This document shows, in pieces, positions 901 to 55,263 of a stretch of DNA of 64,000 nucleotides. The notes beneath the pieces were generated by a model, which ran no database searches, was not told the origin of the DNA, and worked only from the letters and a program-made list of their open reading frames with translations. The position numbers and the translations under genes were made by a program. The number at the start of each line of letters is the position of its first letter. Positions within the stretch are counted from its first letter, which is position 1. Source of the stretch: Schmidtea nova (Eukaryota); the NCBI GenBank assembly GCA_044892505.1, contig CM097883.1, positions 204,414,001-204,478,000 of the forward strand, in the 5' to 3' direction.

Positions 901-3900
901 GTAATTTTTTGTCATGTTCAGAATATTGATTAAAATTTTAAATTAAAAATTAAAATTTGTTTTACGTTTTTCAATTTTTCGATAGGTTCGGTATGGGATC
1001 TCTGGATGTAGCATGCTGGATATGAAATATCAATGAATGAGGCGTCGAAATTTGAATGGATGTATGGATGAATAAATTCTCATGTGTAATATTAGGTGTG
1101 GATGCTGATTGCTGACTGTAATGATTAGATGAATTTGTAAACATGGATGTTGTGAGATGCAAGGGAATTGTGTTACTGGATGTTGAGATGTGCAAGTGTT
1201 TATATTATGGGATGTTGTGCTTTGCAATGAATTTGTGACATTATATATTGTAACTGCAACTTTATAATTAAATACTTTTAAAGGTTTAATAAAATATTTT
1301 TCAGTGTCAAGATTGCATGTAAGAGATGAGATCGGATGAAATGAGTAGTTCAACAATGGATGTGTTTGAGTGAGTCCCTATGTGAAATTTCTGGATGTAA
1401 CATGCTGATGGGTGTTAATGAATGAAATAATATAGTGAAGTGCCTCCGTAATTTATCTATTATTTATATATTAAAAGTCAACTAAAATTTAATTAAATAT
1501 ATTTTTAATTATATCACATTATATATAGATTAAAATAAAACATCAATATATAATTGTTGTTTAAAAAAAGGAGATTTGGTTTTTAAGAGGAGAGAAAAAT
1601 AGGGAGTTTAAAAAGAAGTACGAAAAAGCAAGCCATTTGTAAAGCACTGTATACTTAAAAGCAATAATTCTCATAGCAGTATTAAAAGAAGAAATTTAAA
1701 TCAATAATTCTCGAAGCAGATTTAAAAGAAAAAATTTAAATTTAAATTTTAAATCCTACAAGTTTCCCAATAGTTCAACAATGAATATTTTAATGAAATA
1801 TATTTTATATCTCGTTTTATCAATTTTTGATTTAGTTGCGTTCACTAAATATAGTTTGTGTGTATTTGTAGATGAATAGATTGTCTGGTGTGGTGTTGAA
1901 TATAGATAGTGTTAATGAGTAATATGGATTTATTACTTTGCGAAGAATGTTTTATGGATTATTACTAGTTTTTAGGTGGGGTAATTTATGAAATGATGAA
2001 TGTATATATAAAATAATTTACTAATTTTATGAAATCGTAAACTGATTTTAATATTTATAAATTTTTCTAAGTAAATTGAGATCAATTAAATTTAGAATTT
2101 TTAAAATTCATATTGCAACAAAATTTACAATTTATAGATTTCCTATGCAAATTAAAAAGCATTTAAATTTAAATTTTTATAAAATTTATAAAAGAATATA
2201 ATTATAATAAACTTTTATATATTATAATTTAAATTTTCTAAATAAATCAATTTCAGGAGTGAGTGATATTGATTTATTACTTTATGGATATATTACTTTG
2301 CAAAGAATGTATAATACAAAATTTACAATAAAATTTCCAATTTTTAATTCCTCCATAAAAACTGGATATATTTACCAAAACAAAAATTTTAAAAATTTAA
2401 AAATGATGGAAGTTTTAGATTCAGAATTTTCATACAATTACAAATTTAATTTAATTTTTCACAACATAGTGTTTTCAATAATAGTTTTTGGAAAATTTTA
2501 ACTTCGACCGTATGTGAATTTTCCAAGCAAAGTTTACACGAATATTTTGAGACACTTCACTTGAAAACTTCAGATACCCGAAATTATAGTTCAATTAAAT
2601 AATTTTTATGAAAAATTCTTCGATTAAAATGAGGTTCAACTAAATAAAATCAATTATTGTTCATATAATCTAATACGATCTAAGCATTTCTATCAATCTT
2701 TGAGCTGCTATTTTAAATAGTTTCATTATTTCGATTTTCAAACGATTTTGAAACTTCTTTCGTGATGAGATGGAAAAGATGTACATGTGAGCTCAGGCAA
2801 ATTACGAATTGGATGTATTTGTGTCAACGATTTTTATCGTGATAAAGGTATCTAGATCAATGTCGATTGATAAATGAGTATCATATTGCGCTGAATTATT
2901 AGTTTTCATCTTTGAATAATAAATGACATGTGTCTTGCAAGATATAATCTAGATAAAAATACACTATTAAAAATCGATTATCATTAGTATAGTAAATTGC
3001 CCTTGGACTGTTACCAACATCAGTGTATGGGATGAAGTGATTATGGACGTGTGGGCTTCACCTAAAATAGAAATATGGGCTGACCAGTTGACTCCCTCAA
3101 ATCAGCAGCGATCCACCAAGACTACTTCCATCAGTACAGCTCGTGGCCGGACTGACTTCAGAATGTATGGAAGATCAGAAAAATTTATTTAGATATAATA
3201 ATCATGTAATCAATAGTTCGGTAAAATATTTGGTGGCATGGTTTCATGTAACAAAGTATAATAGTAAAAATAATAATAAAAACAAATTTTATAAATAAGT
3301 TAGCTTAAAATAAAGTTAAAAAAATAAGTTAGCTTAAAATAAAATCAAAAATTAAAAACGGTATAAATTGAAATATCTATAATTATATGCAAATCGTAAT
3401 AAAATAAAGTACATATGAGTTATAACATAAAGTAAAATAATAAAGAGAAAATAACCATCAAGGCTAGTAAAGCATGATCACCAACCATGCTTTAAAATCA
3501 CTGAATCTACCTAAATGTTAATAAATTCTTTTTTTTCGAACGGCAATGGCTCTCGTGAGATTCCCTCGACAAGAAGCTGGATTGTCAATGAGTTGGTTTG
3601 GACTCGTGTAAGATTGGTCCGCCTGTTTGGGATCGAGAATGCGGAGTTAACTGATTCGTTTTTTGTTTCACGGTGTTGTCTCAAAATCTCTGTTTTCGAG
3701 TCCGGTTCCAGATACTTCAGGATTGATTTTGACTTTCGAGTTAAAGTGGTAAACCTTCTGATAAGTAGGATTGTCTCTTGAAAATTTTTCAGGGCTCCGT
3801 CTAATAAGTTAGTACCAGCTGGTAGTTAAAAATTTCTTTTTAAAATCTTCTAAGAAAAATTTTTCGAGAAACCTTTTAGCAAATTCTGGTGGATTCCATT

Positions 3901-6900
3901 TTGATGGCGGTATTCATAGGGTGTTCTGTGTGTTGTTCTCATTGATGCAGTAAAAAAATTGTTCTAGAATGAATTTTCGATTTTTTCGAAAATTAGTTTT
4001 AACAATTTTAAGCAAAATCAAATTTTTATTTTTGCATAAATTTTTAATAAAACTTTAAATAATTTATTTTTAATCCAAAATTTTACTTCTGAATTAAAGT
4101 TTTTCTTAATTTAGTTTAATTTGCTAATTTTTTAACTAAAACAACTTTCTTTCATATTTTATGAGTTTTTAAGATAGAAATTGAAATCTTCCTTCAAAAA
4201 ATATGTTAATTTTTCATTGTTTGTAATTTTATTACATAATTGATGTTTTTATGTTATAAATGTGTTTTTCATGTGTATATTTGTTGCGCTTTTGTTCATT
4301 AAAAATTTTTAAACGTATTTTATTTAATTATTTCGGTGTTTTGTGATTACTGTGTTTGACTTGTTGTTTTAGCTCATAAAATCTTAAATTTACTTGTGCG
4401 CTCTCTACGTGCCGTGTTATCCCTTCATTCAAACAATTCTCAGTTTTTGCTCAACATAAAACACTCGGTGCCCGCAAAAATTGCACCCGAAATTTTTCAG
4501 AGGTGTTTAGAATCAATACTAATAAAAGATCAAAAAGTGTTACATTATACACGAGATACTTGATCTGATCATGCCTTCGCGTATAACAAAAATAGGAAGT
4601 GATAAAAAGTTCATACGTTTGCATCAATAGGATTCTACATTGACTCGCATTCAAAAAATAAAAATTTTAAAGATATGTGCCTACAACAGCATAACTAAAG
4701 TTTGATGAGTCTACAGCGACTCGGATCAAAGTTTAATGATTAACTTTCTGGTTGAATTGGTTAAGTTTTCGATTGAAATGATTTGGTCATTTCATTGTTT
4801 GTATTGGTATCGATTGGTTGTTTGTTGCAATTTTCACTTCAAGACTGTTTAGGGATTAGTTTTTTTAATTTAGACTATTTATCAGTACTTCAGTGATCAG
4901 ACATAACCATATTATATTCCACAGATTCCAATTATCAAAGCAATGCCAAGGATTGGTTAAGAAGATAAGAAGGGTATTTTGCCATCGTCATTGTTTTTAT
5001 TGTTCTCGGGTTTTGGTCAATCTTTTATGTGGTCGTGAGTTTTTTTTATTAGCGAAATACTTTCTTGATGAGCCTTCTTTAGTTGTTTTACGATTTGAAT
5101 ATCTATTTCGGAAATCTGTTGAGACACGTTATAATGCAATTGATAGATTTTTCCTAAGTTTTTAAAATGTGTCAAATTTGTTGTTAACGCTTGTATAATT
5201 TGGGTCAGTTGGTGAGATAACATTTCAACGTATTTTTTGAATTCATTTTTTAAGTTCTTCAGTAAGTCTAGGGTTTCTTGATCGTTTTCATAAATGATTT
5301 CATAGATGTCTTTAATTGCCAATTCTCCTGATATTATTTGGAAGACTCTCTTTAGCTCTGAAAGTTTGTGATTCTGATTAGAAAGGGTATTTTGGATTTC
5401 GTTCTTTACTTGCTCGATCTTTTTGGATATTTGTTAATTAAAGAAGATTTCGGTTGTTTCTTTATTGCATTGTGAATTTGGGCTTGATTGGCTTGATTTC
5501 TGGGTTTCTCCGAGATGGAAGTATATTGGTGTGACTATGGCGATTAAGACAATTTTTTCTACGATTTCATTGTTTGATTGTTGGTCGGGTTTCTAATAGC
5601 ATGAAAGTTTGAATAAGAATAGATAAGTAATAATATTTTCTATTTACAAAGGTGTTACGATTTTACACAGCATTTTGATTTATCAATGACGAAATGATTG
5701 TTTATGATGAGAATAACAAATAAATTGATGAGAATAATAAGTATATAGATGAGAATAATAAATAAATATATATAAGAATAATAAATGGATTGTCAAATGA
5801 GGGATACTGTAATAATAATGTTTGTAGAAGTAGTTCGTCTGTGCAGAGGTTGTAGATATCTGAGGGTTAGGTTGCTTAGGGACTGAGTCTTTGAAAACTG
5901 ATTTGAGAAAATTCTCTGAAGGGTTTGCATTTTCATGTTTGATTTATTTCAGGGTGTTCAGCTGGATCTTTGCTTTTTCTAGTTTCATTTTTTATAATCC
6001 AACTGATGCGATAATACTAAAGATCATTATGACTGCGAAAATACTGATGCCTTGTAAAACGACTGTAATGACTGCTTCTCATTCTCCTACAGCTTCGTTG
6101 GTTGATTCTTGTTTCAGTTGGGTTTCTTTTTGTTTCTCAGATGGAATTAATTGTTTGATGATTTTTTCGGTTTGATGAAGTTGTTTTTTAACTTTTGGTT
6201 CAGTTCCTCTGTCAGGCTCGATCTTTCTTCACTGACTTCATCCTTCTGGTCTAGGGATCTCTCTATTAAGCTTTTCAATTTCTTCAATTCTGTTGTTAAC
6301 TGTTTGAACAAGGATTGATTTTTAAGCTGTCTTTTTATTTGAATGTTTTTCTTTTTAGTTAGGGATATTTGTAATTTTATGAGTTTTTGGGTTTCATTTT
6401 TCAGCTGTTTAAGTATAGGGATTGAATCTTCTCTCGGTTGGGAACATTGTTCGCATTGCAGTTGGATGTGTTGAAACTCATCGTTTCAGCAAAGACAAAT
6501 TTCTTGATAGCTTGCACAGATGCTATCGGATCTTCTAAATAGATGACTTGATTGACATAGACTCAGTCGTTCTTCATTTTGATAATTTGATATGGTATGA
6601 ATTATGATAATTGTTACGATCCTCAGAAGACTGTTCATTTTCCATTGGATTACAGATTTAATTTTTACTTCGCTGATTTTTCAAAATTTTCGTTATATTT
6701 ACAGGGATATTTACATGAGATATTTTTTGTTAGATATTATTCTTTTATCTCTTCATTTAAAATCAAAGTGCTTTCTGTTTTCCAATTACCCAGTTTTGCA
6801 ATTTCATTTGCTTCTTTTCGTCTCTGCTCTTTGAGGACGTAATTATTTGCCGTTTTAATTTCTACAACTTTATTTGCTTTGAATGTATCGAATCTCGCTT

Positions 6901-9277
6901 CTATAATTTCACTTTTTAATTTTATTATTTGTTTCTCTCTTTTGATGATCTTTTTCTGTTTGCTTTTCAGTGATCGTTGTAATGAGTCGATTTTAATTCT
7001 CATTTTATTATCAATGTTCTGTTAACTGCTTATTTTTCTCTTGAGATTATCAATCTCTTGTTTCTGTCTGTCACAATATCTTTGTGTTAAGCCATTTTGT
7101 TGACGGAAAATGTAGTTTTCTCTTTTATTTATTTCAATCGTCTCACACTCTTGTTCTATTTGTGCCATGTATTTTCTATCTTCTCATGATTTATTTCAGT
7201 TGATTTATTTTATCTTGATAATACTGTTCAGTTTCTTTTTTTCCATCTTTTGAATCTCTCTTTTGATCTTGTTTAATGCTCTTATTTTGATCTCTGTCTC
7301 AATAATCTCATGTTTCTATAATTTTAATTTCTCATAACTCTTTTTTACAATTTTTATTAAATTTTGTTTTTATCATTTTTATCATTTTTCTAGTTTTTAT
7401 TTGTTTTCATTTTTTCTATTTTTTATTGATTTTAGGGTTTGTCTTTCTAATTTTTATTCATTGCATTTTTTAAACTTTTTATTTTTACATTTCTTTATAA
7501 ACCTTTTTTCTTTTTCACTTTACATTGTCTTTCCATTGTCTGCACAAACGTCTCTTTATTTTCTCCGAACCCTTCATCTTCGATTTGAGGAATTTCTTGC
7601 CATAATGCCACAGGATATATCGGCACTGGATATAGTGACCACATGACTATTGGATGTTGCCTTCGCAAATTTTGAACTTCCTCCTTTAAAATTCTGGAAG
7701 CTTCTATCAACTCGTCCAGCAAATATGTCACATAATCAAGCTCCTCGTTCAATTGTTCTTTTTCTATTTCGAGCTCTATCGTATTCTCCAGGTCATTTAG
7801 TCTCTTAATTTCTCTTTCGTAATGTTGGCGATTTTCTTCCAAACTCTGGATTGCCATTGCCATTTCAATTTCATATTGTGATTGCTGGATTGCTTTTTCA
7901 CATTCAGCCTTTACTTCTTCTATCAGCCGTCGTTGGTGTTGGATGAAAATATATCTTTGTGTGTTTGTACCACGATATCCGTTGACTTCATGGTTTGCAA
8001 TAGTCAGTTGGATGGTCAGCTACTCGACATTTCGATTATCCATGACCTTTTGTTCATTATACTGTCTATTTTCAAATTCCTTGTATTTGATACGAGCTGT
8101 CTGATTCCTTGGAAATTTCATTCTCCTTTAGTTTCACTCGGTTTTCCGTTGAACTTGACGTTTTAATTATTCATTTTCTATCTCTTGTTTTTCGGCATTT
8201 CCCCATAATTCTACTTCATTTATCGTCATTAATTTCCATGGGAATTAGTAGTTCATCTCGAGTTCCTTTCTAGGTCTTTTTCCATTTTCTGGCTTGCTCT
8301 TTTAGCCACCTTATTTGATGGTTGACACTTCGTTCTCTGATCTGTCCGCTCGTGTTCAACTGGAAAACTTTTTTTCTAAGTTTTCAGTCTCTTCATGGTA
8401 TATGTTTGCATACCACTGGTACTCTCCTTTCAAGGCTTTGACTTGAACATCCCCCCGTCCTAATAATTCTTCGTGTAGAATTCTTACGTGTCGAGTCATT
8501 TCCATTAAATCTCAGTATTCTTGTTTCCACCTCCTAGCTTCTGCTTTTACCATTCTAATGACCTTTTCCTGTTCGTTTTCAGGCTCAATGTCCCTTGTTC
8601 TCACTTTTAGTTTCTTTTGAGGTTGTCCTCTCAAGGCAAATACTTCATCAAGACACTTTTCCCATTTCTCCTTTGTGGTTTTGCATCTACTTCTTTCGCT
8701 TTCAATTTCCTGCTGATAAAATCTTATCGTATTATCGTATCTCCTTTCGGTATCCGTTTATATATTTCGAGTTCTTCTTTTCTTAACCGTGCTTGATTTT
8801 TCAGCGGTGCTATTTTTCATTGTTTTTACTCGAGTTTTTTCTCAATTTCCTCATATTCTAAATTTAGGTTTTCGAGTTCGAGTTCGATTTGTGCCTTTTC
8901 ACTAATTAGTTTCTGTAGTTCATCATTTTCTTTCTTTAACATTTTTATATCTTGAGTTCGTTGTTCCACTATTTTGATATTACCTTGGATCTCTTCTATT
9001 CGCTCTTCGCTGTTTTCCATTTGTTTCATTTGTGCTTGTCTTTTAATTATCTCCTGATCCAAGACATAAATCAATTGTTGCATATCCATTCTAAAATAAT
9101 AATAACATTCATACTTTCTTTTCCTTTTCATTTTGGTTTTTCATGCTTATGAAATAATACTTGTATACATCGATTGAATTTAAAAATCTTTACAATTTAT
9201 TTACAAGGTTGTTTTGTTAGATGATATTACTGATTGGCATAGTGGAACCCTTTGACCCGTTTGTCGACTGATTTTCT

Positions 9278-9382
9278 ACACATTGAGCACAATTTTAATT
9301 TTTTGCTACATTTTTCACATGCTAATAGATGTCCGAATGGTAAATGAATGACTTCCACTTTCTTTACCCAACAGATTGAACA
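9278..9382 (-). pseudogene. IAP-type C3HC4 RING finger
   Basis: CSICWVKKVEVIHLPFGHLLACEKCSKKLKLCSMCR matches the IAP C-terminal RING pattern (CxxC...PCGH...CxxC...CxxCR). PFGH is one base change (TTC/TGC) from PCGH. Not in the supplied ORF track. Confidence 0.85.
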
Positions 9383-9669
9383 TGGGTGTTTGTTTAATAT
9401 AACTTTCTTGATACATGATTTTGGGTTGACGATTTGGTATTTTCTTGTAAATTAAATGATTGCTTTAAATAATTCTAAGGTTGATCCAAATGTATCTACA
9501 TTCTCAATCTTTATTTAATAACGTCTTTCATCAATATTTTACTTTTACCCATACGCTCCATTGCTTTTTGAGTTCGTGGTTCATCCAATGTCTTTTCTGC
9601 CAATGTTTCATTAAAAGTCATCTTCAGAGTTTTGTAATTGATCAGTTCTTCATCCTCATATAGTTCTTC

Positions 9670-9830
9670 TCCAAATTTAGAGTGTTCGTTATATTTCATG
9701 TATTCTTCTTCTTCTTTTGGTAATTAATATTTTATTCCACACTCTGAACATTCAGTGTTTGATTCATCTAATGCATAAAATCCTTCTATCGCTAATCTGA
9801 TACCCATCTTTTTGTCTTCAAAAGTGTTGG
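9670..9830 (-). pseudogene. Second, degenerate BIR-like repeat
   Basis: TFEDKKMGIRLAIEGFYALDESNTECSECGIKY*LPKEEEEYMKYNEH keeps the TF...LA.EGFY...CxxC...EH pattern but has an internal stop and no final Cys. Confidence 0.55.
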
Positions 9831-9870
9831 CGTTTCCATTTATTGTTTCTCTTAGATCAACTGTTATGAA

Positions 9871-10281
9871 TCATATTTCTACTGGGCCTATTGGTTTTAT
9901 CGTTGATATAATAGGATTTTCTCTTTCCTTGTTTTTCACAGTCGATAGTTTCGTTGGGTTTTCACATATCTTTAACACAAAATGGCATGTCGGTGAAAGT
10001 TTTCCGTGCTCTTGTCGTGGATCATCATTAATTCTCCAGGGTTCTATTTCAATTCTACAAAATACACAAATTATTTTATCAGGTTTCTCAATTGTTCCCG
10101 CAAAATATAAGCCATCTTTGGCGAGTTTTCTGTACTGATTCTCTGGGAAATAATCTTGTTTCAAAAAAGTTATATATGTTCGGTTTTCACTTCTTAATGT
10201 TTCATCAATTATTTTTAATTCTCCATGGTTTATTTCCTTGGGTATATTCGGCATTGTTCGTGCAAATCGGTAATAAATCAA
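9871..10281 (-). CDS. BIR (baculoviral IAP repeat) domain ORF fragment
   Basis: R..TF...LAKDGLYF...DKIICVFCRIEIEPWRINDDPRQEHGKLSPTCHF has exact CX2CX16HX6C spacing; domain about 9976-10194. Confidence 0.9.
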   Translation of the reverse strand: MIYYRFARTMPNIPKEINHGELKIIDETLRSENRTYITFLKQDYFPENQYRKLAKDGLYFAGTIEKPDKIICVFCRIEIEPWRINDDPRQEHGKLSPTCHFVLKICENPTKLSTVKNKERENPIISTIKPIGPVEI

Positions 10282-10639
10282 CTTTTAGGTAATTGGGTTT
10301 GATATCTCTTCTTTATCTCTTTTCATTAATTCACATAAACCTTTGAATGATCAGTCATCATCTTGTTTTCTCGCAATCTTTCTTTCTGTCAACATATCTA
10401 CAATATTTTCTACATTAAATTTTCCACAATTCTTGTTTTTTTATATTTACAAAGTTTTTGTTTTTCTCATTTTTATTTGATTTTTGACTTTTCTCATTTT
10501 TATGTTTTTTTGTTATGTTTTTATGATTTTCTATATTTTCTTTTTGTACATTATAATATAAGTATTTCATTAGCATACAAACATATTTACAACTTTTCAT
10601 CTTCACTACGGCTTTCTTTGTTTAATAAATAAAATGATT

Positions 10640-11160
10640 ATTCTATAGTTAATAAATCTAATGCTAATAAATCTTTATTCGCTGATAATTGTTTTTGGGC
10701 ATCCGTATCTCGCAGACCAGTTTAATTCTAGTTTTCTACAAATTGTTGCTGCTGAGATCTTTTTGGTTGGGATAGCCTCAAACCAGTTTATGTTTCGGTC
10801 GATTATTGTCAGTAGATATTTGTGTTTGTTGTTAGGTGGTTATGGATCAATTATGTCTATATGAATTGTTTGGAAGGGTTCTGTTTTAGGGAATTCAATT
10901 TTTGTTGTTATTTTGTTTTAATGGTAGTTTATACATGAATTCACGAATTCTTTGATGTCTTTCCTCATGTTTGACCATACCACTTTTGTGTGCAGAGTTT
11001 GTATGTGACTTTTGTTCTTGGCTGGTATATGTTGTGAAATTGTTTGATGATTTCGATTCTGTGTTCATCAGGTACTATTAGTCTTATGTTGTTTTCTATT
11101 GAGATATCGTGCCAAATTCCATCTATCTCTTTTAGAACTAACGAGTTGAGTTTTGGGAAG
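10640..11160 (-). pseudogene. Ty3/gypsy integrase remnant
   Basis: Manual minus-strand translation with stops/frameshifts: IWHDISIENNIRLIVPDEHRIEIIKQFHN...VVWSNMRKDIKEFVNSC...FQTIHIDII...YLLTIIDRNINWFEAIP...WSARYGCPKTIIS. It aligns motif by motif with the integrase of the intact Pol at 23962-27372. Confidence 0.85.
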
Positions 11161-11339
11161 TTTTTTATTGTTGTTTCTTACTTGTTTTTCATTGTTTTTT
11201 TAATTTCAAATTTTAATTTTAAATTGAAATTTTATTTTTAATTATTATTTAGTTTTCCTTATTAGCCAAAATTGGGGGTCACCTGAATCCTACAGAATTC
11301 CTCGGATAAAAATAACAACAATAATAATGAAAAAAAACA

Positions 11340-11486
11340 NNNNNNNNNNNNNNNNNNNNNNNNNNNNNNNNNNNNNNNNNNNNNNNNNNNNNNNNNNNNN
11401 NNNNNNNNNNNNNNNNNNNNNNNNNNNNNNNNNNNNNNNNNNNNNNNNNNNNNNNNNNNNNNNNNNNNNNNNNNNNNNNNNNNNNN
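11340..11486. other. Assembly gap (N run). Other gaps: 30039-30288, 36367-36607, 36809-36964, 55719-55850, 60820-60970
   Basis: Runs of n in the sequence. Confidence 1.
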
Positions 11487-13662
11487 ACACACACGTTAAC
11501 TACAAGCAAACGAAATTGTAATTGAACCTTTATATCTTTTAATTATTTCCTCAATAAATTAATGCTGGCATTCTGTGGCGGCTGATTTTTTCTGGTCTAA
11601 GAAATGTCCTTTGAATGCCTTTATAAATTGATTCCTAACGACTGTATACCCATGAGATCTCTAGCTATTTCATGTTGGAGATGTATACATCGGCGTAGAC
11701 CAAATTGGCAAGTTAGCGGCACTAAAAGCAACTACTCCATACTTGCATTCACTCGGGTTACTTAGCCGATAGAAGACCTTTCCTTTCCTTCCTCATTAAG
11801 TCACTACTTTGAGGTTGCCAAACGGTTAATTTATGTGAACGGGCAAATAAAAGTTTAAGTGAAAAAACATCACACGACGATTTATTATTATTAATTGGTC
11901 GTCTACCACAGTTTGATGTGCTCTCTCAGCTTTTGTATCTGATGTTTCATTTGGAATCGGAAGAAATAACGTTATAGGAGTTCAGAAAACTCCCTAGCTT
12001 GTCAGGCTATCGTAAGTCTTAAATGTGCAATTTCCTGGGCTCGTTGACTACTCTTACATTTAGAGTTGCTCCATAAATTGGGTTCGCAATTCATATTGCA
12101 AAGAAAAACATTGATTATTACTTTCTTAATATTTTCTTATTCACAAAGAAAAATTTCGCACAGGTTCTTATTCCTTCACTATTCGGGTATCTATTAGGGC
12201 AATCGTGAAATGATGAACAAACGCTAATAAATGATGAAATTTAATAAATAAATAACGTCTAACAACCGGACCAGCATATTATGAAACAACAATTGAAGTT
12301 AGTGTGCCCAAAATAACACTTTGATGGCGAATATATCGTGCATCCTGATGGTCGTTTTCCACTCTGTCTGATATATCTTTGTCCTCCCGGTGGGACAGGT
12401 AAGATTAAATGAAGTGAGGTCTGTTGATGGTTTGGCTAGATGAAGATGATGTGGCGGGACTAGAAGGATAATTCCGAGTCCGTCAAATTCATTTTGGGGT
12501 GTATCTTTATTTCGAAATCCCGACATTGAACGTAGGAGCGCGAACCATGTGTCAAACTTCGGAGAGTATCCCATTTCATAGTTCTCGGCTACTGTGGCCC
12601 TCCTCGCCACCAGATTTCATCGCCTATATTGAATTCCAAATTGAGAATGGGGCTCGAGATTTCAGAATGTTACGCTACTGCCGCAAATTTAGATCTAATT
12701 CTGTCGGAATTTAGGTAGGCAAAGGTTTGAGAAGTTTCAATACTCTCTGTATGAACGTATTTGATATATATCTCTCTGTATATATTTGATCATATATTCT
12801 CTGGAGGAACGTACATTCATCGTTACTAGACTCAGAAATCTCTGTTTCGGCTTTTACTATTCACGAAGTTTCGGAATACATTCTGAAGAAAATAAGTGAT
12901 TTAAGTTCGCAGTAGAGTTAGATATTCCAGAATGACTTTATGGTTCGAAAAGATATTATTATTAGTAAGTGATTTACAGTTGATCGAAGTTTATTAACAG
13001 TTATTGCGATTCGTCGATTAACTTGTTAATAACTACTGAGATCTGATTGACAGTGGTTACTGTTGAGTTACTGTTTAGATTCTTAGCTTATGATTCGATT
13101 TGTCTGCGTTTCTCGACACTTGCATTCGACTGCTGATGAATCGTAAACGGAAATTCTTTATCAGAAAATAACAAAATTCTCTCGCATTGGTGATTACCAC
13201 AATTTCTATTCAGTAAATATTTACGGAGTGTATGTTCTGCCAATTACGACCCGAATGTGGTTCATTCTTTGAATTTCGACTTGTCGATTATTATTAGATG
13301 AATGCGATATCGAATACTCCATTTGCAATTCACCCATTCTCCTCTTCCTTGTTAGTTTAATTATTTAGTGTCTTCACCGAGCCGCATAACTCTGAGAGTC
13401 ACGCCGGTGCTACTCAACCTCGTGGCTGCACAACACCAAAGTTGTTCAGCTATCAATTGATTTTACAGGGAAAAATGATGAGGTTTTACCTGACACATAA
13501 TATTCAATAACTAAAAATTCAATTTACCTTTTATTTCTCGATCCAAATGAAAATTAACACTAACTGGTGTTATCGTTAACAGCTATGGTTCAAAATTTCG
13601 AATGAGATATAATTGAAGTGTAAAGTACAACTCTCTTAACTTGACGCTGATAGTCAAGAATA

Positions 13663-13665
<3 letters not shown>

Positions 13666-13742
<77 letters not shown>
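13666..13742. repeat. (AT)n microsatellite
   Basis: About 38 uninterrupted AT units. Confidence 0.98.
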
Positions 13743-13743
<1 letters not shown>

Positions 13744-13959
13744 TGATTTGGTCCTGTGGATTGACCAATCAGAATCGGTCTACCACTCATTTGCATGGTA
13801 ATTTGGTTGTTTATTTATTATTAATATGATTGACGTTTTAAGCATCCTGCTTCGTGGCTCAAAATTTATCAGTGAATTAATGAAAATTAGTTTAGTTTTG
13901 ATTTTATTTTATTCTTAATTCTTTGATTAATATTTTAATATATGTTTTTATTGTAGACT

Positions 13960-16900
13960 CGGGGCCGGGTGGTGGGTTTTTGCCGCCCTAGGCAAAACGC
14001 AAATTTGCCGCCCTATAGCCTATATGTAAAGTTCATTTTGGATTGTTAAAATCACTGTGCGTTCATCTTTCATGTTTCTCTTAATATTTGTTGTTGTAAT
14101 TATCTTTTCATGGTCAGAGAATGTGTGCGATGTAATTGTTGAAATACTAGCAAACCGTACAGACAATAGTTCAATCAGAAAAGAATGGAATGCGCCTTAT
14201 TTTTATTGAGGCAAATTCCCGAGCAAGTTCGCCGATTTCCACCTTAGAAGCCATTTCTTTCTCAATGGAGAGAATAGCCAAGTCCGATAAACGATCTTCT
14301 GCCATTGTAGATCGCAAGTAATTCTTTATTATTTTCAGTTTTGAGAAGCTGGATTCTCCTGCTGCAACAAATACTGGGAGAGTAAGCATGATGCGCAAAG
14401 CCAGAGACAAATTTGGTAATACACTGCACAGTTGATTAGTACAGATAACTACAAGCAACTGCTTTGGTGTTTTTCTCTCTTGAATCCGACGTTGTAGGCA
14501 TTTTATTTCTTCAAAAAGACGGAGGGCATCAATGTCTTTGTCACTGTCGTCAGTCAGAGCTTTTTCTAATGATCGGCATTTTTCAAGAAGGGTGGCGGAC
14601 TGATAGTCTCCTCCAATACAACTGAGAAACCCAAACACTGTGTGATGAGCATTCAAGAGCGTGAAGCGCTCTTCCAAAGAGTTGATAGCAGCGTCTAACA
14701 CCACGAAGAAAAACTGACACTTGAACGACTGTCTGGGATCTGATATTTGATCATTAGCCGCTTCATACTGAAACATTCGTTTTTTCGTACGAGCCCGAAA
14801 TTGCGTCACAGCAGGAAATGTTGGGTCTATCTCCAGATCTTTTGCTAAGCCTTCTGCCTCTTCAAGAGTTTTGAGAAAGCTGTCGTCAGAGCGATAGTTT
14901 ACGAGATATTGAATGGTTTTATTCAGCTGAGTGACAGCTTCGGACATGTCGACAGATTGAGATTGAAGCAGTTTATTCGCAAAGTTGACCTCGTAAAGGA
15001 TGATATACCAAACGACCACACTAACAACAAATTTGAAGCAACGCAGCTGAAATGCAATTCCTTGAGCATCTGCACGAGTTTGTGCGCCAGTCACTCCAGT
15101 TAGGGTCGTATCTTCGATAATAGAAACAAGGGCATCATAGACTTCTCCAATTTGATAACGTAAAACACGAACGGCATTTACTCTACTTGACCACCTCGTT
15201 TCACTGAGAAGTTTGATAGTTAAACCCGACACATTGTTTTTGAGAACCTTACAGCGATGTGTGGACGCAGAAATAAACACATACACCGCCTGTACGACTC
15301 CAAAACATTTGACAGCTTCTGTGCAGGAATGTGCAGCATCGTTGACGACGAGGTTCAGTGAATGAGCAGTGCAAGGGATATAAAATGCTTGAAGATTTAA
15401 ATCAAGAATTTTCTTCTGCACGCCATTATGCTTTCCTTTCATGTTAGAGCCGTTGTCGTAACCTTGCCCTCTGAGATTAGTCAAAACTAAGCCCATTTCC
15501 TCGATCTTCTTCACAATTAAATTCGTCATTCCAGCTCCAGTTGTTTTAGATGCGACCTCATATTGCAGAAAATGTTCGTGAACAGCAACATTCACAACAC
15601 GTTCTTCTTGAGCTTCACACAAGGACACAAATCGAATCACTAAAGTTATTTGTTCAACATGACTAACGTTTGGTGTACAATCAAAGATTATTGAGAAGTA
15701 TAATGCATTTTTGGCTTCACTAAGAATTTCATCTCTCACCTTTTTTGCCAACAATCCAATGATTTCATTTTGAATATTTTTGCCCGCATAGTGCACATGA
15801 ATTTCCTCACTTTTGATGCGCCGGATGTGTTCTTTCATTACAGGATCAAAGCTTCCTAAGTATTCAACAAATTGAAGAAAGTTACCATTGTTGGGTTTAA
15901 AAAGCTTATCGGACGAACCTCAAAATGCTAAGTTTTGAACTGCGTGTACTCTAATGAGTCCGATGAGTCTTTTCAATACTTGTCTCCTGTGTTCGACTTC
16001 TTGTTTTACGACTCGCTGAATTGGCTGCATCAATAGTATTTTCTGGACGCAAACGAACTTTTAACTCCTTCCATTGCATATAAGTTTTATGTAAGTTGGA
16101 GACACTTCATGACTTGAGAGAATAACGGACATATTTTTCCAATCACAACAACCACTGCTTGTTAATGCCACCGATTCTTTCGTGAAGAGTTTACATGAGA
16201 AACAGAATACGACGTTCTAACTTTTCGAATAAACTAGCCAAGAACGTGTCACACTTTCTCCATTCACAAGATTTCGTTTGTAGTGATGGGAACTAAATTT
16301 CCTTCCTTTATCATCTAGTGGAAATTGTGCGTCCATGATTTGTCATGAACCTCTTTTCACCAAATGAATTCTTAACGCATCGTTGAAGGCGAACTACTGG
16401 GATGGATCCTCAATATCGGCTTCTTGATGGTCGTCTGTAATATAAAAACAATAAAATGATATACAACATTCTACATAGATCATATTATAGGGACCACTTA
16501 CCTTGTGGATGATTAGCAATCTTCTCCTCAACAGTCAAATGGCATTGCGAAGAGAGAGTGTCATTTTTTTGTATGTTCCAAGAATGATAATGGATCAATG
16601 GGTGCTGATGTATCATCTTCTGTGGGTTGTTTTATTTCAGCAAACTATCCTTCATCCGCAATAAGCTTGTTGGATTTTTTGAAAATTGTATTAATTTTAC
16701 GTAACTTGGATATCTCGAGTTCTTGTTTCCTTTTCTTTTCGTCTGCCAAATTCTTGTAACCTGATCCACTTAATCTCTTTCTTCCGTCATTCATGAGATA
16801 CGAAGTATGTAGGTAGTAAATAGTCTACAGACGGTACAAAATGACAGGATGAAGCGAGGTACATTGAACAATTCACGACTGAAAATGTATTATATCTCAC

Positions 16901-17329: not shown

Positions 17330-20062
17330 TGTAGATTTCTCCTCATCCCCCTTGGTTTTTGGGCGTTGATTATTATTTAAAAATGGGTAAGTTAAATCTA
17401 CTTATTATTTTCTAATGCCGTTTATTTTTAGGATTTATTTCTTGTTATATCAGGTTATTTTAATTATTATTTATGTTTCTACTTAGTTTCTATTTTTTTC
17501 AGATGAGTTGTTCTGACAAACAATAAACTTTCTTTTGTCGCTCAATTTATTTCTCAATAATTTATTTAACTTATCGACAGTTATTCTTATCCTTCCGTTT
17601 TTTCTATTTTTCTTCTGTTTCCTCAAATTATTGTCTCTTCTTTTATTCCGGTTGAAATAAAGGCCATTTAGGAACTAAATACCAAAATCAATATGTTGGG
17701 CCAACCAATTAGGATTCACATTGACCATAAATTAAAATTATCATATACAAATCAAATAAATAAACCACAAATGGCCAACATTAGCAGTAAATCCGAAATA
17801 AAAACAAGATCAAGGTAATTAACAAAGGAAAAGTACTTACAAATTAACAGCTGTAAAAACCCCAAAAAACTGAGTTGAAACAGCCGGCTCGAGAAAACGT
17901 AATAAAAATATAAACCACCAGTCTGCGGAAACAACAAGAGCACCAACTAAAAATATAGATTAAGAATAAATCAAACCAGTTGTTATGAACCAATCAGTTA
18001 TATCGCAAATAAACCTACATATGATTAACAATAAAAATTAATAAATATATAAATAACCCGAGACTAACTAGAAAACAGAATTACTGATTAGTTAATCAGT
18101 GAATAAAAAATAAAATATTTGCCAATTATGGGGCAACAGACGAGTTTTGAATGGTGGATCGGGAACGTTGTTCAAAAATTTTTCTCAAGCTTAAATCACC
18201 ATAGGTAAGAGATATGTATTTTGTGGCCACATGCATAGTAGATTCATACCTCAAGAATTTGTGCAGTAAACATGTTTCGACATCAACGATCATAATGAAT
18301 AGAATGCATAGAACGACCACCCGAGAGTAAGATCACTGCACATTAGTCGAGAGGTCGATTGAAGGGGTAGATAAATATAAGTATCGATACATATCGAAGT
18401 CACCAAGTCGTGAAATAGCCTGTTTTTAATGTAGTTTAGAGTCCTATCAGGAACCAATTAACTATCCAAAATTGATGCGACTGAGAGTTGACGCACTTAA
18501 TCCACTACAATAGTGACACGAGTAGAGAAAGGAGTTAGAAATAAGTTCCACATACGAGTGACAAACGGAATATAAGTATCACGTGCTAAACTGTTTGCAT
18601 GAAGTATTGTTGATTATTGACCATTATTCAACTTACGATTTAGACATTGACCCAAATCACTATCGCTGCGCAGTATAGACTATTGAACTACATCGAGAGT
18701 ATAGACAGCTGGTGAGTTGCGTAAATAAATAGAATTGATTTTAGTAATAAAATTTGAATTTATGGAGAGATGATGCTATAAAACGATGAACGAATGAAAG
18801 ATATGATCAGTAAGAATATTTGCAGACAGGAACAATTCATGCTTGATCAGTGTGAAATTTAAATATGCATATTTATTTTTATTTATTTCTAGAAGGCGTG
18901 AAATTTTCATCGAACAAGGGACATCAAAGATCTCCGAATTCGAAAGCTACCCGAGGTCGAAGAGAGAAAACGGGTAAACCGAAATTACGGGTGAGCACCG
19001 ACGTACCGTATTAAGTCCAGGCTATCGTGAATTGACATGCATGACAATGGAAAAGGGAGTTTGGACGAAATCAGACGAATTTGGTTTAGCCCGGCCGAAG
19101 TGAAAGAAATATTAAAGGGCAAGGACAGGGTAGAACAAGCACTCGATGAGCAGTCCAGAGAAATATCGGCTACAAAGGTGGAATTAAATCGGGGTCTAAG
19201 AACGGTCTCGGGTGACTTCATCGCTGAACATCTGAAAAACCAAATTTGGGGAACTACGTTCAAGCGCTGGGTTCCGTCTCAAAGTGCGACAACGGAAACG
19301 CAGACAGAAAGAAAGCTAAAGAATTACTAAAGAATCTCAAGACCAAGAAAAGAAACCGATTAGGCGCTATAAGACGGCGCGAGAAAAGGGCGTTCGCCGA
19401 GAAAATGGGAATTGAGGTGGACCTGTAAATCGGCCTGACGGAGAAGCAACTGATAAATATTATCAACAAAAACGTATTTTTAATCTAAATAAATGAATTA
19501 GTTAGTTATGGTGATTTAAATTTCTTGTTTGTTCCATATTGTTTGTATGGATATAAGTATGATGTATGCTTGAATATAATAAACGGGATCGCAGATGGGA
19601 CATAGTGTAGCTATTAAGACCTTCTATCAATCAAAATGAACCCGTAGTATTGATAGGGGAATAGTATAAACCTAAGTTGCTCACCTGCCCTATTAATTTA
19701 CACCGCCCAGTTTATTACCAAAATGAGGTGCAATTAGGGACTAATCATGTTGGCAGAGGTTACCCTAATCATTCTCTCCAAGCAAACCTGTGTTTAACAT
19801 CGCACCAACACACCAACAAATAGGATGAAGCAGATTCATTATAGTTAGAAATTATTAGAAAAAAATATAATCTGCCCACATTGGTTACCAAGAAGTTATT
19901 GATTGCTCAATTTCTTTTAACATTGGTTCTCGAAGTTGGTAATTATCCGGTATGTGACAGACTGGCATCGTGCCAGTCACACTCAGCAATTTAGAGATGG
20001 ATTATCACCAACTTTTTTTCCATAATTAATTAATATTTATTTTTAATGACCCTATAAAATTA

Positions 20063-20898: not shown

Positions 20899-21663
20899 TG
20901 TAGTGGTCCGGAAGGCCGATAACCAAGATTCGTTCAAAGCAGTAAAAGAACATAGCCTGCCTCAAACTTTCACTCTATTCAGTATTATTGAATTTTCAAC
21001 AAGTCATTTTAATGACGAAGAAAAAAATAAACTCCAAAAAAATAACAATCTGAGTTAAAAAAAATAACTGTGGTCAAACTGTAAAACTTTCATTTTTAAT
21101 TTTGGCATTTACATTTATTTTTACATTAATTAACTTTAACTTGGAGTTTGTTTTAATATTCTGGCAGAATTTATATTTTGTTTCTAAAGTTTGAAACGTT
21201 TAACATTGTTTAAAATAAATATTTTCAAAAAGTGGACTACTAGTTTTTGATAATTGAAAATGCGTTATTCTATTGTTAAAATTTTAATTGTTCTACAAAT
21301 TTTAACACTCCATATTTTGCAAATGTGTCACAGTAATATTGTTGGATGTGGTGGTTTCGTTAAAACAGATATCATTGGATTTGCTTATCATAAATTATCA
21401 GCACAATTAATGTTTTCGGACGGAACTCTAAATTATGTGACTGATGTCCTTCCAAATGGAGCGCATTCTATTCCTATATATGATTTCGGTTTCTATGTTA
21501 CCAAAATTATGAGTCCTGACGGTTGGAATATTGAACCAACTGATGGCTACGTTATAAACATTAATAGCCAAGATTCTTGTCCAGATGACTATAATTTTCA
21601 TTTCGCTGGTTTTACCGTACTTGGTAAAGTATCAACAGCTAATATTGAAACAGGTCCACTAAA
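20899..21663 (+). repeat. 5' LTR
   Basis: TGTAGTGG...CCACTAAA, direct repeat of 27590-28354. Confidence 0.95.
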
Positions 21664-24031
21664 AATGGTGTCAGAGGAAAACCAATCTCCAATTCAAGAT
21701 GGAAATCAAACATTTCGTCCCCAAGTCTCACAACATCCAGCAACAATGAATAATTCATTTCAATTAAACTCATCTAATTCTAATAATGCAAGTACGCTTA
21801 GTCAAATTGAAGTCGTTAAGCGAATTGCAGCTGCAATGCAACCACCACCACCTCCGATGCATTTAAGCAATCGACAAAATCAACCGTCAATTCCTATAAT
21901 TCCAACCCCATTGCAAGTAAATCAAGACTCTCAAATTCCATTAGACTGTGCGCAATTAATAAGGATTCCAACCAGTTCACAAGACTCAGCTACTAACATT
22001 CGACAGGCTTTACATTTAATACAACAGAATTTAATCTTACAAAGTGATAAATCCAAGCAAGCTAACAATCATATATCAGATGCTAGCAACTCTATAGCCC
22101 CTAATCAGTCTTTAATCGTCAACAATTCAACGAATAGTAGTCTGTCAGCAATAACAATAAGTTCATCTCCAGTCTCTCCACAGAATCAAAATTCTACTGT
22201 TCTTTCTATGATTAACGTCGACGTTCAAATATTAGAAGAGATAAATCGATCGATTCCTCAGCAGAATCCAAAACCAGTAAATTCAACGCCAGTAAATCCC
22301 AATTTTTCTCTTATTCAAACGGATCCCAAAGTCGCTCAACAATTGACAAATGACTTTCAAAAGCAGTTTCTTTGCACACCGCTAGGTGCTAAGCCACAGG
22401 GATACAATTCAATTGGTCAAACATCGGAAGCAACACAAATCAACATGAAAAATTGCAATAACATCAAATCTATCGTAAATTTTTCACCAGCCCCATCGAA
22501 TATGAACTTAAACACCAACAACGATATCAATAATTCGCTATTAAAAGCTCCATCAAATTCAAAAGTCACAGGAACTCCAATATTAACAGATTTTCTTCTC
22601 TTTTCGGAACAGAAGATCAGCCCCCATTATCGCTGTGGAGTTACGTTAGCATATTTTATTATTATATTAAATTTCTATTATTATATATTATTATTTATAT
22701 CATTATTATTAAAATCATTATTATTAAAATTAACGGAGCCGCCCAATCTTCCGAATTTTAGTCTACGTCGCATATCCTATAGGTTTTTGTCAATATTCGT
22801 AAGGGTTTCCTCCTTCACATTTCACTTTAAACTAGCCCAGGACACGACTATATCAAAACTATCTACATTAATTTGCAAGCGCTTGTCGTACGAGGGACCG
22901 ACATACATATCTTATAATGGCGCAATATTAAGGAATCAGGACTCACTTTTAAGTTCTGACATATGTTCGGATTCTTTGCTGTTCTGTCATGTACCATTGT
23001 ATGGCGGCGCACCATCAAGTATAGACGATGACAACGAATACGACGATAAAAAGCCCAAACCTTTGCCTAAAAAGCAAAGAAATGTTCGAGGCGCTGCTTC
23101 TTCCGACAGTAACTCTAGACAAAATATTAATTGTCCGTTCTTTTTAGATGAGAACCAATCACCATCAACTTGGTTACTCACACTCGAAGCCCTTTTAGAA
23201 AGTTGCGGCGTTACTTCTTCAAGAGATAAATTCTATAGAATATTATCTCTCATCCCACAGGAACATTTAGGCCGCCTTTCTGCCGTTATTCGCCGCACAA
23301 CGCAAAAAACCTTTTTAACCCCTTTTGAGGAGCTCAGCACAGGACTGCTGGATTTATTTAAAGTCCCCAAACAGGAAATATTCTCAAAATATTTCAAAGC
23401 CCAATCTTTAGGAAGTTGTAAGCCGACAGAATTTTTGCAGAAGGCTTTTACAGACCTCGAACAAATGCAAAATGGGACAGCACCCGACCAAAACATGCTA
23501 CGCCAGTTCTTTTTAAGTGTACTTCCGACACACACACAACAGATACTTGCTTTATCGTCTCCGGTAGATATACACGAATTAGCAAAAATGGCGGACAAAA
23601 ATCATGAAATTGTTCCGTTAGGTGGTAAACCAGGCTCATCTGTCAATAGCCTTCCTATCGCAAGCCCGCCGATCCCATCATCAACAGAAAATGCTCTTCT
23701 TTGCGCCATTCGCGACCTTACTGATCGTATTTCGCATTTGGAACGTCATAAATCTCCGTCTCGAAATGCATCACTTTCCAATGCGTTTGACCGAAGACGT
23801 TCCAAATCCCCGGCTTATTCAAACATTTGCTTTTATCATACCAAATATGGGACGAAAGCAAATTGTTGCAACATAGGATGTGGCTGGCGAAACAAAGCAG
23901 CTACCCTAAAAATCATTGATAAGTGCATTTATCACGCACGATTTGGGGATAAAGCAAACAAATGCATCGTAGGTTGCAAATCCTACAATTCCCCACCATC
24001 TTCTCCAAACAACATTCAAAAAAACTTGTAA
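21260..24031 (+). CDS. ORF1: NOMO N-terminal fragment / Q-N-S-P-rich linker / hydrophobic segment / ubiquitin-like domain / Gag. A native start is probably the ATG at 21665.
   Basis: Single open frame, first ATG at 21260. Gag core W..TLEALL...LRQFFLSVLP..TQQILA...ELAKMADK plus two C-x2-H-type knuckles (CFYHTKYGTKANCC, CIYHARFGDKANKC). Confidence 0.88.
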   Translation: MRYSIVKILIVLQILTLHILQMCHSNIVGCGGFVKTDIIGFAYHKLSAQLMFSDGTLNYVTDVLPNGAHSIPIYDFGFYVTKIMSPDGWNIEPTDGYVININSQDSCPDDYNFHFAGFTVLGKVSTANIETGPLKMVSEENQSPIQDGNQTFRPQVSQHPATMNNSFQLNSSNSNNASTLSQIEVVKRIAAAMQPPPPPMHLSNRQNQPSIPIIPTPLQVNQDSQIPLDCAQLIRIPTSSQDSATNIRQALHLIQQNLILQSDKSKQANNHISDASNSIAPNQSLIVNNSTNSSLSAITISSSPVSPQNQNSTVLSMINVDVQILEEINRSIPQQNPKPVNSTPVNPNFSLIQTDPKVAQQLTNDFQKQFLCTPLGAKPQGYNSIGQTSEATQINMKNCNNIKSIVNFSPAPSNMNLNTNNDINNSLLKAPSNSKVTGTPILTDFLLFSEQKISPHYRCGVTLAYFIIILNFYYYILLFISLLLKSLLLKLTEPPNLPNFSLRRISYRFLSIFVRVSSFTFHFKLAQDTTISKLSTLICKRLSYEGPTYISYNGAILRNQDSLLSSDICSDSLLFCHVPLYGGAPSSIDDDNEYDDKKPKPLPKKQRNVRGAASSDSNSRQNINCPFFLDENQSPSTWLLTLEALLESCGVTSSRDKFYRILSLIPQEHLGRLSAVIRRTTQKTFLTPFEELSTGLLDLFKVPKQEIFSKYFKAQSLGSCKPTEFLQKAFTDLEQMQNGTAPDQNMLRQFFLSVLPTHTQQILALSSPVDIHELAKMADKNHEIVPLGGKPGSSVNSLPIASPPIPSSTENALLCAIRDLTDRISHLERHKSPSRNASLSNAFDRRRSKSPAYSNICFYHTKYGTKANCCNIGCGWRNKAATLKIIDKCIYHARFGDKANKCIVGCKSYNSPPSSPNNIQKNL
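21666..21677 (+). promoter_or_regulatory. Primer binding site, probably tRNA-Leu
   Basis: TGGTGTCAGAGG lies 2 nt after the 5' LTR and is complementary to a ...CTGACACCA tRNA-Leu-type 3' end. It overlaps the ATG at 21665. Confidence 0.8.
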
Positions 24032-27000: not shown

Positions 27001-27372
27001 AAACCAGCTTTAGTTTTGCTCGATGATGAACCTTCACCTGACAATCTCTCGACCCAAACCGATATAATCTCGAACTCTCACACAAACGATAATGACCCTA
27101 TCAATTCCACTGAGGACGATCTTTCCAACAACTCACCTTCATACCCGATTGTTCAAACATCAAACGCAGAAAACAAAATGACGGAAAAATCTGAATACAT
27201 ACCGTTTATCCCAGAACCGAATGACGTACTTCGTTTACCACCCATTTTGAGGAAAGCAAAGCAAACACAAAATAAACCAAAGTCCGTCACTTACAACAAA
27301 TGGGTTCGTGTCCGTTCTATTAATCAAAAACCGGATTCACCAACTAGACTAATAAGAATCTATTCAAATTAA
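23962..27372 (+). CDS. pol: Pol (protease-RT-RNase H-integrase), in the -1 frame relative to ORF1
   Basis: FLVDTGSS protease, YIDDILI RT, TTDASNIAIGAVL RNase H, HIDIVGP / SDRGTQF / GLVERFHRTLK integrase, GPY motif; no internal stops. Confidence 0.97.
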   Translation: MHRRLQILQFPTIFSKQHSKKLVMPSLIAAEVDGKLPPALDLFLVRAESPSFSVAPNFCSTLDFLVDTGSSLSILPLQYESLCDDSVYTLKAANGTMVNTHGSFSANFVLPSLNQSFIWKFCVADVIHPILGSDFLSSHNLLVDCRSRLLRTHSHTNSSLIIDTKKLNISDSSDVSVSTAIQPIHPKIATDILNKYTFSQTMPLRKQVSVTSYCHTINTTNSLPVRCKVRPLSNEKLDFVRSEFATLLNEGIIKRSKSPWSSPLHLVPKKDGTFRPCGDYRRLNMITVHDSYSMPLVNDILYRLTEAKIFSTIDLVKAYHQIPVKESDVEKTAVLTPIGLFEYVFMPFGLRNSAQTFQRHIDHILMDLPFAIPYIDDILIGSKDAETHKKHLDAVLCALSSNNLQINLDKCLFFKEEVRFLGHIISGQGVSPPSDRLDTISKFPLPQTVTQLRSFLGTVNYCHRFIPKISEILSPLSGYCSKPKKSIIPWNDTSLLAFEHAKTALSNIQTLHYPRGDLPLRLTTDASNIAIGAVLHQINGYIPEPLEFYSKKLTSPQQKYSAFDRELLAIYQSVKHFKHLLEGRLFSIHTDHKPLVYLFSMKDPSPRQQRQISYISEFSCQIYHIAGSDNIIADCLSRNVNAIIHCPLFSIDELQNNPPDAIDISKFGDKHIIKDKIHYDSSLPGTLRPILNDSMRKLAFLSVHNTHHPGSSATFNLLHTCVVWPNMRHDVKLWVAQCIGCQRFKITKHTKPPIIHYPTGNRFENLHIDIVGPVPSDCGFSYLLTMIDRKTRWFEVIPLRTISSNTIATSLIQNWISRYGVPKSIISDRGTQFESNLFQALTAKLGIQHLRTTTYHPQTNGLVERFHRTLKASLGILSEQQGWTKVLPFVLLGWRNTPSRTTGSSPAQLLFGTNTSLPGQLVDFDNSPTLEDLAIARDHFLSIDTNPEFSSSTTYKPYIPKTFENASHVYIRNITDASLKPRYSGPYKLVEIKENNAKVIVNDATQTFNLCRLKPALVLLDDEPSPDNLSTQTDIISNSHTNDNDPINSTEDDLSNNSPSYPIVQTSNAENKMTEKSEYIPFIPEPNDVLRLPPILRKAKQTQNKPKSVTYNKWVRVRSINQKPDSPTRLIRIYSN
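24019..24025 (+). promoter_or_regulatory. -1 ribosomal frameshift slippery heptamer A AAA AAC
   Basis: Sits in correct ORF1 codon phase one codon before the ORF1 stop; Pol is in the -1 frame. Confidence 0.8.
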
Positions 27373-27589
27373 TTGCACCACTGTCCACCAAGTTCTATTA
27401 GTTTTTTTTTTTTCGGTTTCCTAAATTTCTTTCGCAATTCTTTCTCAGGTTATTCCATGTCATTCACGACTCTTTCCAAATACTTTCTGGACACTACAAA
27501 ATACCATATTATTATATACTAAACTACTATATTACGTATCTACATTATAGTATTTCAAAATGTGCTCCACATCTTCCGATGAGGGCTGA

Positions 27590-28354: not shown

Positions 28355-28358
28355 ATAA
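27945..28358 (+). pseudogene. NOMO: Captured NOMO (nodal modulator) N-terminal fragment in the 3' LTR; same copy at 21260-21663
   Basis: Signal-peptide-like MRYSIVKILIVLQILTLHIL, then IVGCGGFVK...GTLNYVTD..PNG...IPIYD.G...P.GW..EP...C...NF.F.GFTV.GKV, which matches the recalled NOMO1 N-terminus. The stop is supplied by the flanking TSD. Confidence 0.85.
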
Positions 28359-29299: not shown

Positions 29300-29410
29300 A
29301 GACCCCATGAAAAATACGGCAATTTTAATGAGTTCATCAGTTCAAAGAATTGCAAAATTCAAAACAATTCGGTAGGTTTTATAATCCTTCTGTGACTATA
29401 TTATCGGACT

Positions 29411-55217: not shown

Positions 55218-55263
55218 AATTTTACCGTTTCTTAGCTCAATTTTGTTATATACCCGAAGTTAT

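Follow-up and report, generated by a model that had tools for sequence, protein, structure and literature searches.

In inhibitor-of-apoptosis proteins (IAPs), the BIR domains bind caspases or the antagonists of these proteins, while the C-terminal RING domain is a ubiquitin ligase; the order BIR-BIR-RING is also that of the baculovirus IAPs. BIR domains occur in planarian Burro elements as well, which the earlier note on this DNA had mentioned and which is in print: BIR, Smc, MATH, BCL2-like and ankyrin motifs are listed for Burro elements, and BIR, Smc, BCL2-like and env are placed between gag and pol (PMC6431247). Burro in planarians is marked by an env that lies in frame and separates gag from pol, the gag of Schmidtea mediterranea contains three CCHC knuckles, and Dugesia japonica holds decaying Burro fragments (PMC6431247). 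According to the passage of PMC13465017 that cites Lee et al. (Dev Cell 2026, PMID 41916287), the protein 'B-IAP' of Burro1 (GYPSM1) of S. mediterranea, which contains a RING and a BIR, is anti-apoptotic and protects planarian stem cells. Excerpts of two further papers describe BURRO1 as transcribed and under PIWI control (PMC8532177) and name Burro in passing only (PMC11410931). Other excerpts report the loss of RING-bearing IAPs in sampled flatworms, among which Schmidtea is unnamed and from which triclads may differ (PMC13159474), and the presence of endogenous nimaviruses with an IAP (PMC4506587).

The locus described here lies in a window of 64,000 nucleotides, a term that is used for the whole stretch of DNA that was analysed, and contains an IAP-like cassette on the minus strand, preceded by a fragment of a gypsy integrase and followed by further decayed frames. 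We consider it quite probable that this cassette is a dead, intronless BIR-BIR-RING IAP copy located in the accessory block of a giant gypsy element of the Burro type, present at high copy number in a planarian-like genome. From upstream to downstream along the minus strand, the block and its surroundings comprise the following features:

11340 to 11486, no strand: assembly gap (run of N) upstream of the block
10678 to 11160, minus strand: truncated gypsy integrase, with the H2C2 zinc-binding region and the first half of the core, containing stops and a frame change (PF17921, PF00665, tblastn)
10441 to 10677, minus strand: A-rich spacer from the integrase fragment to the IAP frame, in which a 25-base unit is arrayed in tandem and the word TGTAAATA occurs twice (stop list, motif positions)
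9976 to 10200, minus strand: BIR1, canonical (PF00653, 62.8 bits; own profile, 56.1 bits)
9676 to 9804, minus strand: BIR2, degenerate, in the frame of BIR1, with a stop at 9726 (own BIR profile, 15.2 bits)
9392 to 9675, minus strand: linker, about 95 codons long, interrupted by a frame change near 9540 and by two stops, 9517 and 9454 (translation, stop list)
9227 to 9391, minus strand: IAP-type C3HC4 RING (9391-9245) and a short C-terminal tail that ends with the stop at 9229 (PF13920)
5017 to 9140, minus strand: decayed A-rich, K/E/Q-rich (coiled-coil-like) frames and A-rich spacers of the repeat block of the IAP

The minus-strand region was translated in all three frames and the pieces were scanned against Pfam with X at the stops. 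In addition, a BIR profile was built from 456 motif stretches taken from the 150 best natural IAP matches, and a RING profile was likewise obtained from natural IAPs. The canonical BIR claimed in the earlier note is borne out, since BIR1 (10200-9976) matches PF00653 with an E-value of 4.5e-17 and a score far above the cut-off of 22.9 bits, and all four of its zinc ligands (CxxC, H, C) are present. BIR1 matches 64 solved sequences with a BIR at E<=0.001, and its open frame extends over 137 codons (10284-9871), with the next stop at 9873. For BIR2 (9804-9676), the Pfam BIR scan gave no match; with the own profile its score is reached by none of 1000 shuffles (top shuffle 7.5 bits) and, when the window is divided into 858 six-frame chunks, it ranks second after BIR1 (i-E 0.005, against 0.05 for the chunk that follows). 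CxxC and His are kept and the final Cys is gone. Judged by this profile, BIR2 probably derives from a BIR and has degenerated below the reach of Pfam, so that the second, degenerate BIR proposed earlier stands on the profile and the shuffles, with Pfam silent and the last Cys missing. The RING (9391-9245) matches PF13920 (E 1.2e-10, 41.5 bits, cut-off 27) and scores 47.2 bits with the own RING profile. Its third ligand position is a Phe. The RINGs of cIAP1, cIAP2, ML-IAP and XIAP are the ten best of 26 solved RING matches (E 1e-8 for cIAP1/cIAP2), in agreement with the IAP type that had been assigned to this domain, which extends beyond the boundary first set for it (9278) to the stop at 9229. 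The domains are thus in the order BIR-BIR-RING, without any sign of an intron.

The cassette is broken between BIR1 and the RING by four stops (9873, 9726, 9517 and 9454) and by the frame change near 9540, which confirms the decay noted before, and a single open frame for the whole IAP protein is absent in the present copy. This copy is therefore a pseudogene that is unable to make the IAP protein, and the word 'complete', which the earlier note had used for the cassette, applies to its list of domains and not to its reading frame.

Contig data show that the cassette belongs to a repeat. Contigs of four public runs (X1 to X4) of one study, which possibly include the source of the window, were aligned to positions 2500-11339. 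These runs are not independent evidence on range, but reveal which other copies the genome contains. None of the runs listed for the stretch is an RNA run, which has no bearing on expression. This region is covered by 11,642 contigs in X1, 3,690 in X2, 4,317 in X3 and 3,597 in X4; by identity, those of X1 divide into 730 at 99% or above, 1,923 at 95-99%, 4,454 at 90-95% and 4,535 below 90%. The summed word depth in X1, which is not a copy number and supports 'many copies' only, amounts to 37,951 in the BIR1 bin, 62,233 in the BIR2 bin and 82,932 in the RING bin, to 9,998 in the junction bin and to 16,539 and 6,217 in the integrase bins. Elsewhere the lowest bin has a depth of 570, single listed contigs have depths of 27-62, and the other three runs are alike in pattern. 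The passage from BIR2 to the start of the RING is bridged, at about 15% divergence, by 4 of the 28 listed records (one per run, probably representing one other copy), and that from the RING to the next frame by one of the 28, at about 12% divergence. None of the 28 listed records (32 of 23,731 pieces) covers the integrase-BIR junction (9820-11339). With so many diverged contigs over the BIRs and the RING, and with these joints bridged, the reading of a single host pseudogene largely fails; what the contigs show is a repeat of many diverged copies. The refuting case named in the earlier note, a host IAP pseudogene adjoining the integrase at this locus only, is thereby contradicted for BIR and RING, the link to the integrase lying outside the listed records. 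In three of the four runs a contig omits 519 bases of the window (9453-9973) and joins the end of BIR1 to a position just before the RING; an IAP copy without BIR2 exists in the genome.

With respect to the origin of the IAP, HMMER was run against 1.84 billion representatives and found 2184 matches at E<=0.001, 248 of them at 1e-10, with best identities of 27-40%, and no relative at E<=1e-30. The best 150 of the 2184 matches are general IAPs, none of which has a gypsy pol match. A word-based search for longer proteins with the BIR1 frame returned none among 63 candidates, and scans with BIR1 gave three weak loci in metagenome contigs and one in viral contigs, with neither BIR nor pol at any of the four. 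In a FastTree phylogeny of BIRs (470 tips), BIR1 has no supported sister group; its branch is long (0.89 versus a median of 0.41), the nearest nodes have supports of 0.73 and 0.67, and two of its five nearest tips come from a mollusc and an annelid. Neither a close relative nor a donor of the IAP emerged from the libraries searched. DIAP1-like and baculovirus BIR-BIR-RING IAPs share with the cassette the domain order and the C-terminal RING, and the distance from BIR2 to the RING, about 95 codons in the cassette, falls within the range of 20-205 residues of 15 natural BIR-BIR-RING matches, four of which have 93-103 residues. However, these proteins are not close relatives of the cassette, in which BIR2 is degenerate and BIR1 long-branched.

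The integrase fragment upstream of BIR1 calls for a separate consideration, because the cassette had been placed directly downstream of a gypsy integrase. What precedes it is a fragment only, which ends at a stop at 10677 and is separated from the IAP frame by about 230 A-rich bases with stops in all three frames; the tandem array with the 25-base unit is located at 10420-10502. The fragment matches PF17921 (E 4.6e-6, 27.1 bits), and of the core only positions 2-72 of the 102 of PF00665 are matched, with 20.7 bits, below the cut-off of 32.6. Its 5' limit, 11160, is the coordinate of the earlier note, and blastp of the fragment did not show similarity above 10995-11043. Further upstream there is an AT-rich stretch and then the assembly gap (11340-11486). 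Neither a reverse transcriptase (RT) nor an RNase H was found ahead of the fragment: the pol of a small gypsy element of the same window (23953-27372) matches only positions 10995-10678 in tblastn, with 48% identity. Over a common stretch, the fragment is identical to this small gypsy (20899-28355) at 53 of 106 positions, to the gypsy at 43.6-45.4 kb at 21 of 92, and to P0151, an intact protein of the Burro type described below, at 27 of 102 (26%). P0151 is one proxy, and this contrast between lineages holds only insofar as it represents the carrier. The small gypsy, which has the integrase closest to the fragment, contains no IAP and has another base make-up: its sense strand has an A content of 0.28, while that of the fragment is 0.45, like the block, a value that fits either a long stay in the block or an origin in another A-rich family. 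The half-domain, the lack of RT and RNase H before it, the A-rich spacer after it and the greater nearness to the small gypsy than to P0151 led us to reject the reading in which the pol of the carrier ends with this integrase. The fragment probably does not belong to that pol and would be a half-domain from a different gypsy lineage, which either has long been carried as cargo in the block or is left over from a nested insertion.

Downstream of the RING, the block continues with the decayed frames of 5017-9140, for which no Pfam family scored above its cut-off. The frame at 7498-8019 has no Atlas match of at least 0.9, and eight pieces downstream of the RING show no similarity among themselves or to the IAP matches. 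Summed contig depth is high from 5450 upward and lower below this position. These K/E/Q-rich frames could answer to the Smc-like annotation of Burro. The sense-strand A content is 0.40-0.45 in the block and 0.38-0.40 in the Burro-type region considered below, compared with the 0.28 of the small gypsy. A word of this block, TGTANATA, which we take to be Pumilio-element-like, is present eight times on the sense (minus) strand of 5000-11339 and once on the other; shuffles contain 0.58 on average and none of 300 reaches eight. The pattern was chosen post hoc and is the top one of 140 same-letter patterns. Four of the eight words are in spacers, and the sense strand of the Burro-type region has none.

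The window contains a second region of interest for the identity of the carrier:

49349 to 55142, minus strand: decayed Burro-type 5' half, with gag, three CCHC knuckles, an unknown domain, an env-like fusion glycoprotein and a protease

This half lies upstream of the IAP block on the same strand, with 38 kb and four assembly gaps between the two. It matches PF24664 (env-like, E 3e-29) and PF00098 (E 2.6e-6), the three CCHC knuckles, the same number as is given for S. mediterranea (PMC6431247), being read from the translation at 54612-54226. It stops short after the protease, at a 120-base repeat (49230-49346) that has an inverted copy at 19910-20029. A search of long proteins with the env region gave one match among 2816 candidates, P0151 (ENA), an unnamed protein of 3181 residues in which a single frame comprises CCHC, env, protease, RT, RNase H and integrase, and which has a twin, P0152 (JGI/IMG). 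The Burro half is colinear with residues 4-1864 of P0151 (tblastn, 21-44%); identity over 55142-49349 is 43% for gag, 37-44% for env and 29% for the protease region, and in both the env is located between gag and protease. In contrast to the Burro half, P0151 is intact and includes RT, RNase H and integrase, and it contains neither BIR nor RING. No Burro-type RT, RNase H or cognate integrase was found in the window, where residues 1865-3181 of P0151 have no counterpart other than the small gypsy and two integrase pieces of weak similarity. Neither P0151 nor the env frame gave a match in scans of viral contigs. Pfam at E<=0.01 returned no ankyrin, MATH or BCL2 match in the frames read with X (3399-9300 and 49238-55718) or in P0151; a stretch before env looks BCL2-like by eye.

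Membership in Burro was judged on long LTRs, a total length of 25-30 kb, a high copy number, a gag with two or three CCHC knuckles and an env between gag and protease. The env is in this position in 55142-49349 and not in the IAP block, which for its part is covered by thousands of diverged contigs in each of the four runs. No LTR pair was found for the IAP block in the window, where the copy is fragmented, and self-blastn shows no repeat flanking it. The Burro half and the IAP block share one strand and stand in the order expected of such an element, and we infer that they are likely the same kind of element. As far as the text citing it goes, Burro1 is like the cassette in being a high-copy gypsy-type element with BIR and RING cargo; the cassette differs from B-IAP in being dead and in having two BIR units, that text giving 'a RING and BIR domain' (PMC13465017). 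The foreign half-integrase before the cassette and the absence of MATH and ankyrin matches are also unlike Burro1, the two having been compared by description only.

Several other elements are found in the window. The small gypsy at 20899-28355 (plus strand) is young, compact and intact, with LTRs of 766 bases that are 99.9% alike and an open pol of 1139 codons, and is presumably CsRn1/Kabuki-like by the CHCC motif of its gag. Its LTR holds a host NOMO1-like piece (PF22898, E 6e-14) that is in frame and leads to an ORF of 925 codons, in which a weak ubiquitin-like match and gag come next. A second small gypsy-like element (43146-46927) has LTRs of 153 bases (99% alike); its gag-pol, which lies on the minus strand, is frameshifted. 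The segments 28355-31032 and 35622-38650 form an inverted duplication, 97-99.8% alike, that may in part be an assembly artefact; in each arm an assembly gap interrupts a Cdc25-like rhodanese piece (PF00581, E 3e-8), for which a search gave one match, at 76%, and short pieces of this duplication recur near 56520 and 60971, by a small palindromic repeat. Two hAT-like transposase frames, so labelled by eye, are found at 14171-15919 and 61387-63923 and are 67% alike over 323 bases. Finally, a decayed protein-primed PolB (57399-57803, minus strand) matches PF03175 with E 1.3e-5, just under the cut-off, and is likely a Polinton-type remnant.

How the IAP came to be in this block can be read in different ways. 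Because the cassette is multi-copy and intronless and a Burro-type half is present on the same strand, a Burro-type carrier is the best reading, and the cassette is most likely the decayed IAP cargo of such an element, which is of a kind already known. The main competitor, which we regard as unlikely, places the IAP block on another high-copy element, either with the integrase as the remnant of its own pol, near to the small gypsy, or as a non-autonomous rider. The sole retroelement domain beside the cassette is indeed closer to the small gypsy than to the Burro type, by the counts given above (53/106 versus 27/102), it is as A-rich as the block, and many copies cover the bins of the integrase and of the junction (6,217-16,539 in X1). 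Yet this integrase piece comprises only half a core and is not preceded by RNase H, none of the 28 listed records spans its junction with the BIR, a BIR (PMC6431247) together with a RING (PMC13465017, in the citing passage) is cargo reported for Burro, and the Burro half is on the same strand of the same window. Of similarly low probability, and concerned with the inner organization of the block, is the idea that the truncated integrase of an unrelated small gypsy is fixed cargo before the IAP and that the accessory block consists of separately expressed genes, with UTRs marked for Pumilio-type stem-cell control.

Much less probable is that the block is an amplified piece of an endogenous large DNA virus, with an IAP and unknown frames, alongside which a gypsy remnant was inserted. 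The order BIR-BIR-RING is also that of the baculovirus IAPs, and the decayed PolB piece at 57399-57803 could be taken in the same sense, as could the IAP-bearing endogenous nimaviruses mentioned in the excerpt of PMC4506587. Nevertheless, the PolB piece is under the cut-off and 47 kb off, Pfam scans of the block find no DNA-virus gene, the scan of viral contigs with BIR1 gives one weak locus without a BIR, and all frames are on one A-rich strand, as in a retroelement. Least probable of all is that the cassette is a pseudogene of a host IAP which neighbours an integrase remnant nowhere but here. The best protein matches are cellular IAPs with 27-40% identity, and the integrase-BIR junction is bridged in none of the 28 listed records (23,731 pieces), both of which would suit such a pseudogene. 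They are countered by the very many diverged contigs over the BIR and RING bins, by diverged contigs that join BIR2 to the RING and the RING to the downstream frame, by the lack of an intron, and by the loss of RING IAPs reported for sampled flatworms in the excerpt of PMC13159474, where Schmidtea is unnamed; a single host pseudogene was rejected on account of the diverged multi-copy contigs and the bridged BIR2-RING passage.

The Burro-type reading takes the block and the Burro 5' half as parts of a single kind of element and the host as probably a triclad flatworm, the element type and the AT-rich DNA speaking for a planarian. Working copies of the element would make a DIAP1-like protein, the BIRs of which would bind caspases or IAP antagonists and the RING of which would ubiquitinate these. 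The cell that expresses the transposon would thus be kept alive and, going by the published Burro1 work as cited in PMC13465017, this may be a stem cell. The proposal of a candidate anti-apoptotic E3 ligase carried by a retrotransposon is in this way upheld as regards a carrier, which is best read as Burro-type, and not as regards the adjoining integrase, which is probably not the carrier's. The RING can no longer be presented as a new element, since a Burro1 B-IAP with BIR and RING and a tested anti-apoptotic role has already been reported in the cited passage (PMC13465017), and its novelty was accordingly rejected.

A retrotransposon with its own inhibitor of apoptosis is a striking finding, yet one that, according to the same passage, has already been made and tested for Burro1 (PMC13465017). 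To this the present copy adds little, namely a further instance and a layout with two BIRs. Small points that remain are this layout, the copy without BIR2, the half-integrase and the excess of TGTANATA, and papers or supplements may already cover them. As a family trait, the half-integrase could matter: were it fixed cargo, it might serve as a decoy and poison the integrase of rival elements. Should the host have lost its own RING-IAPs in this lineage, the animal would have no source of such a protein other than the element. Among natural copies, selection on the IAP unlike that acting on the remaining parts of the element would speak to mutualism between host and transposon.
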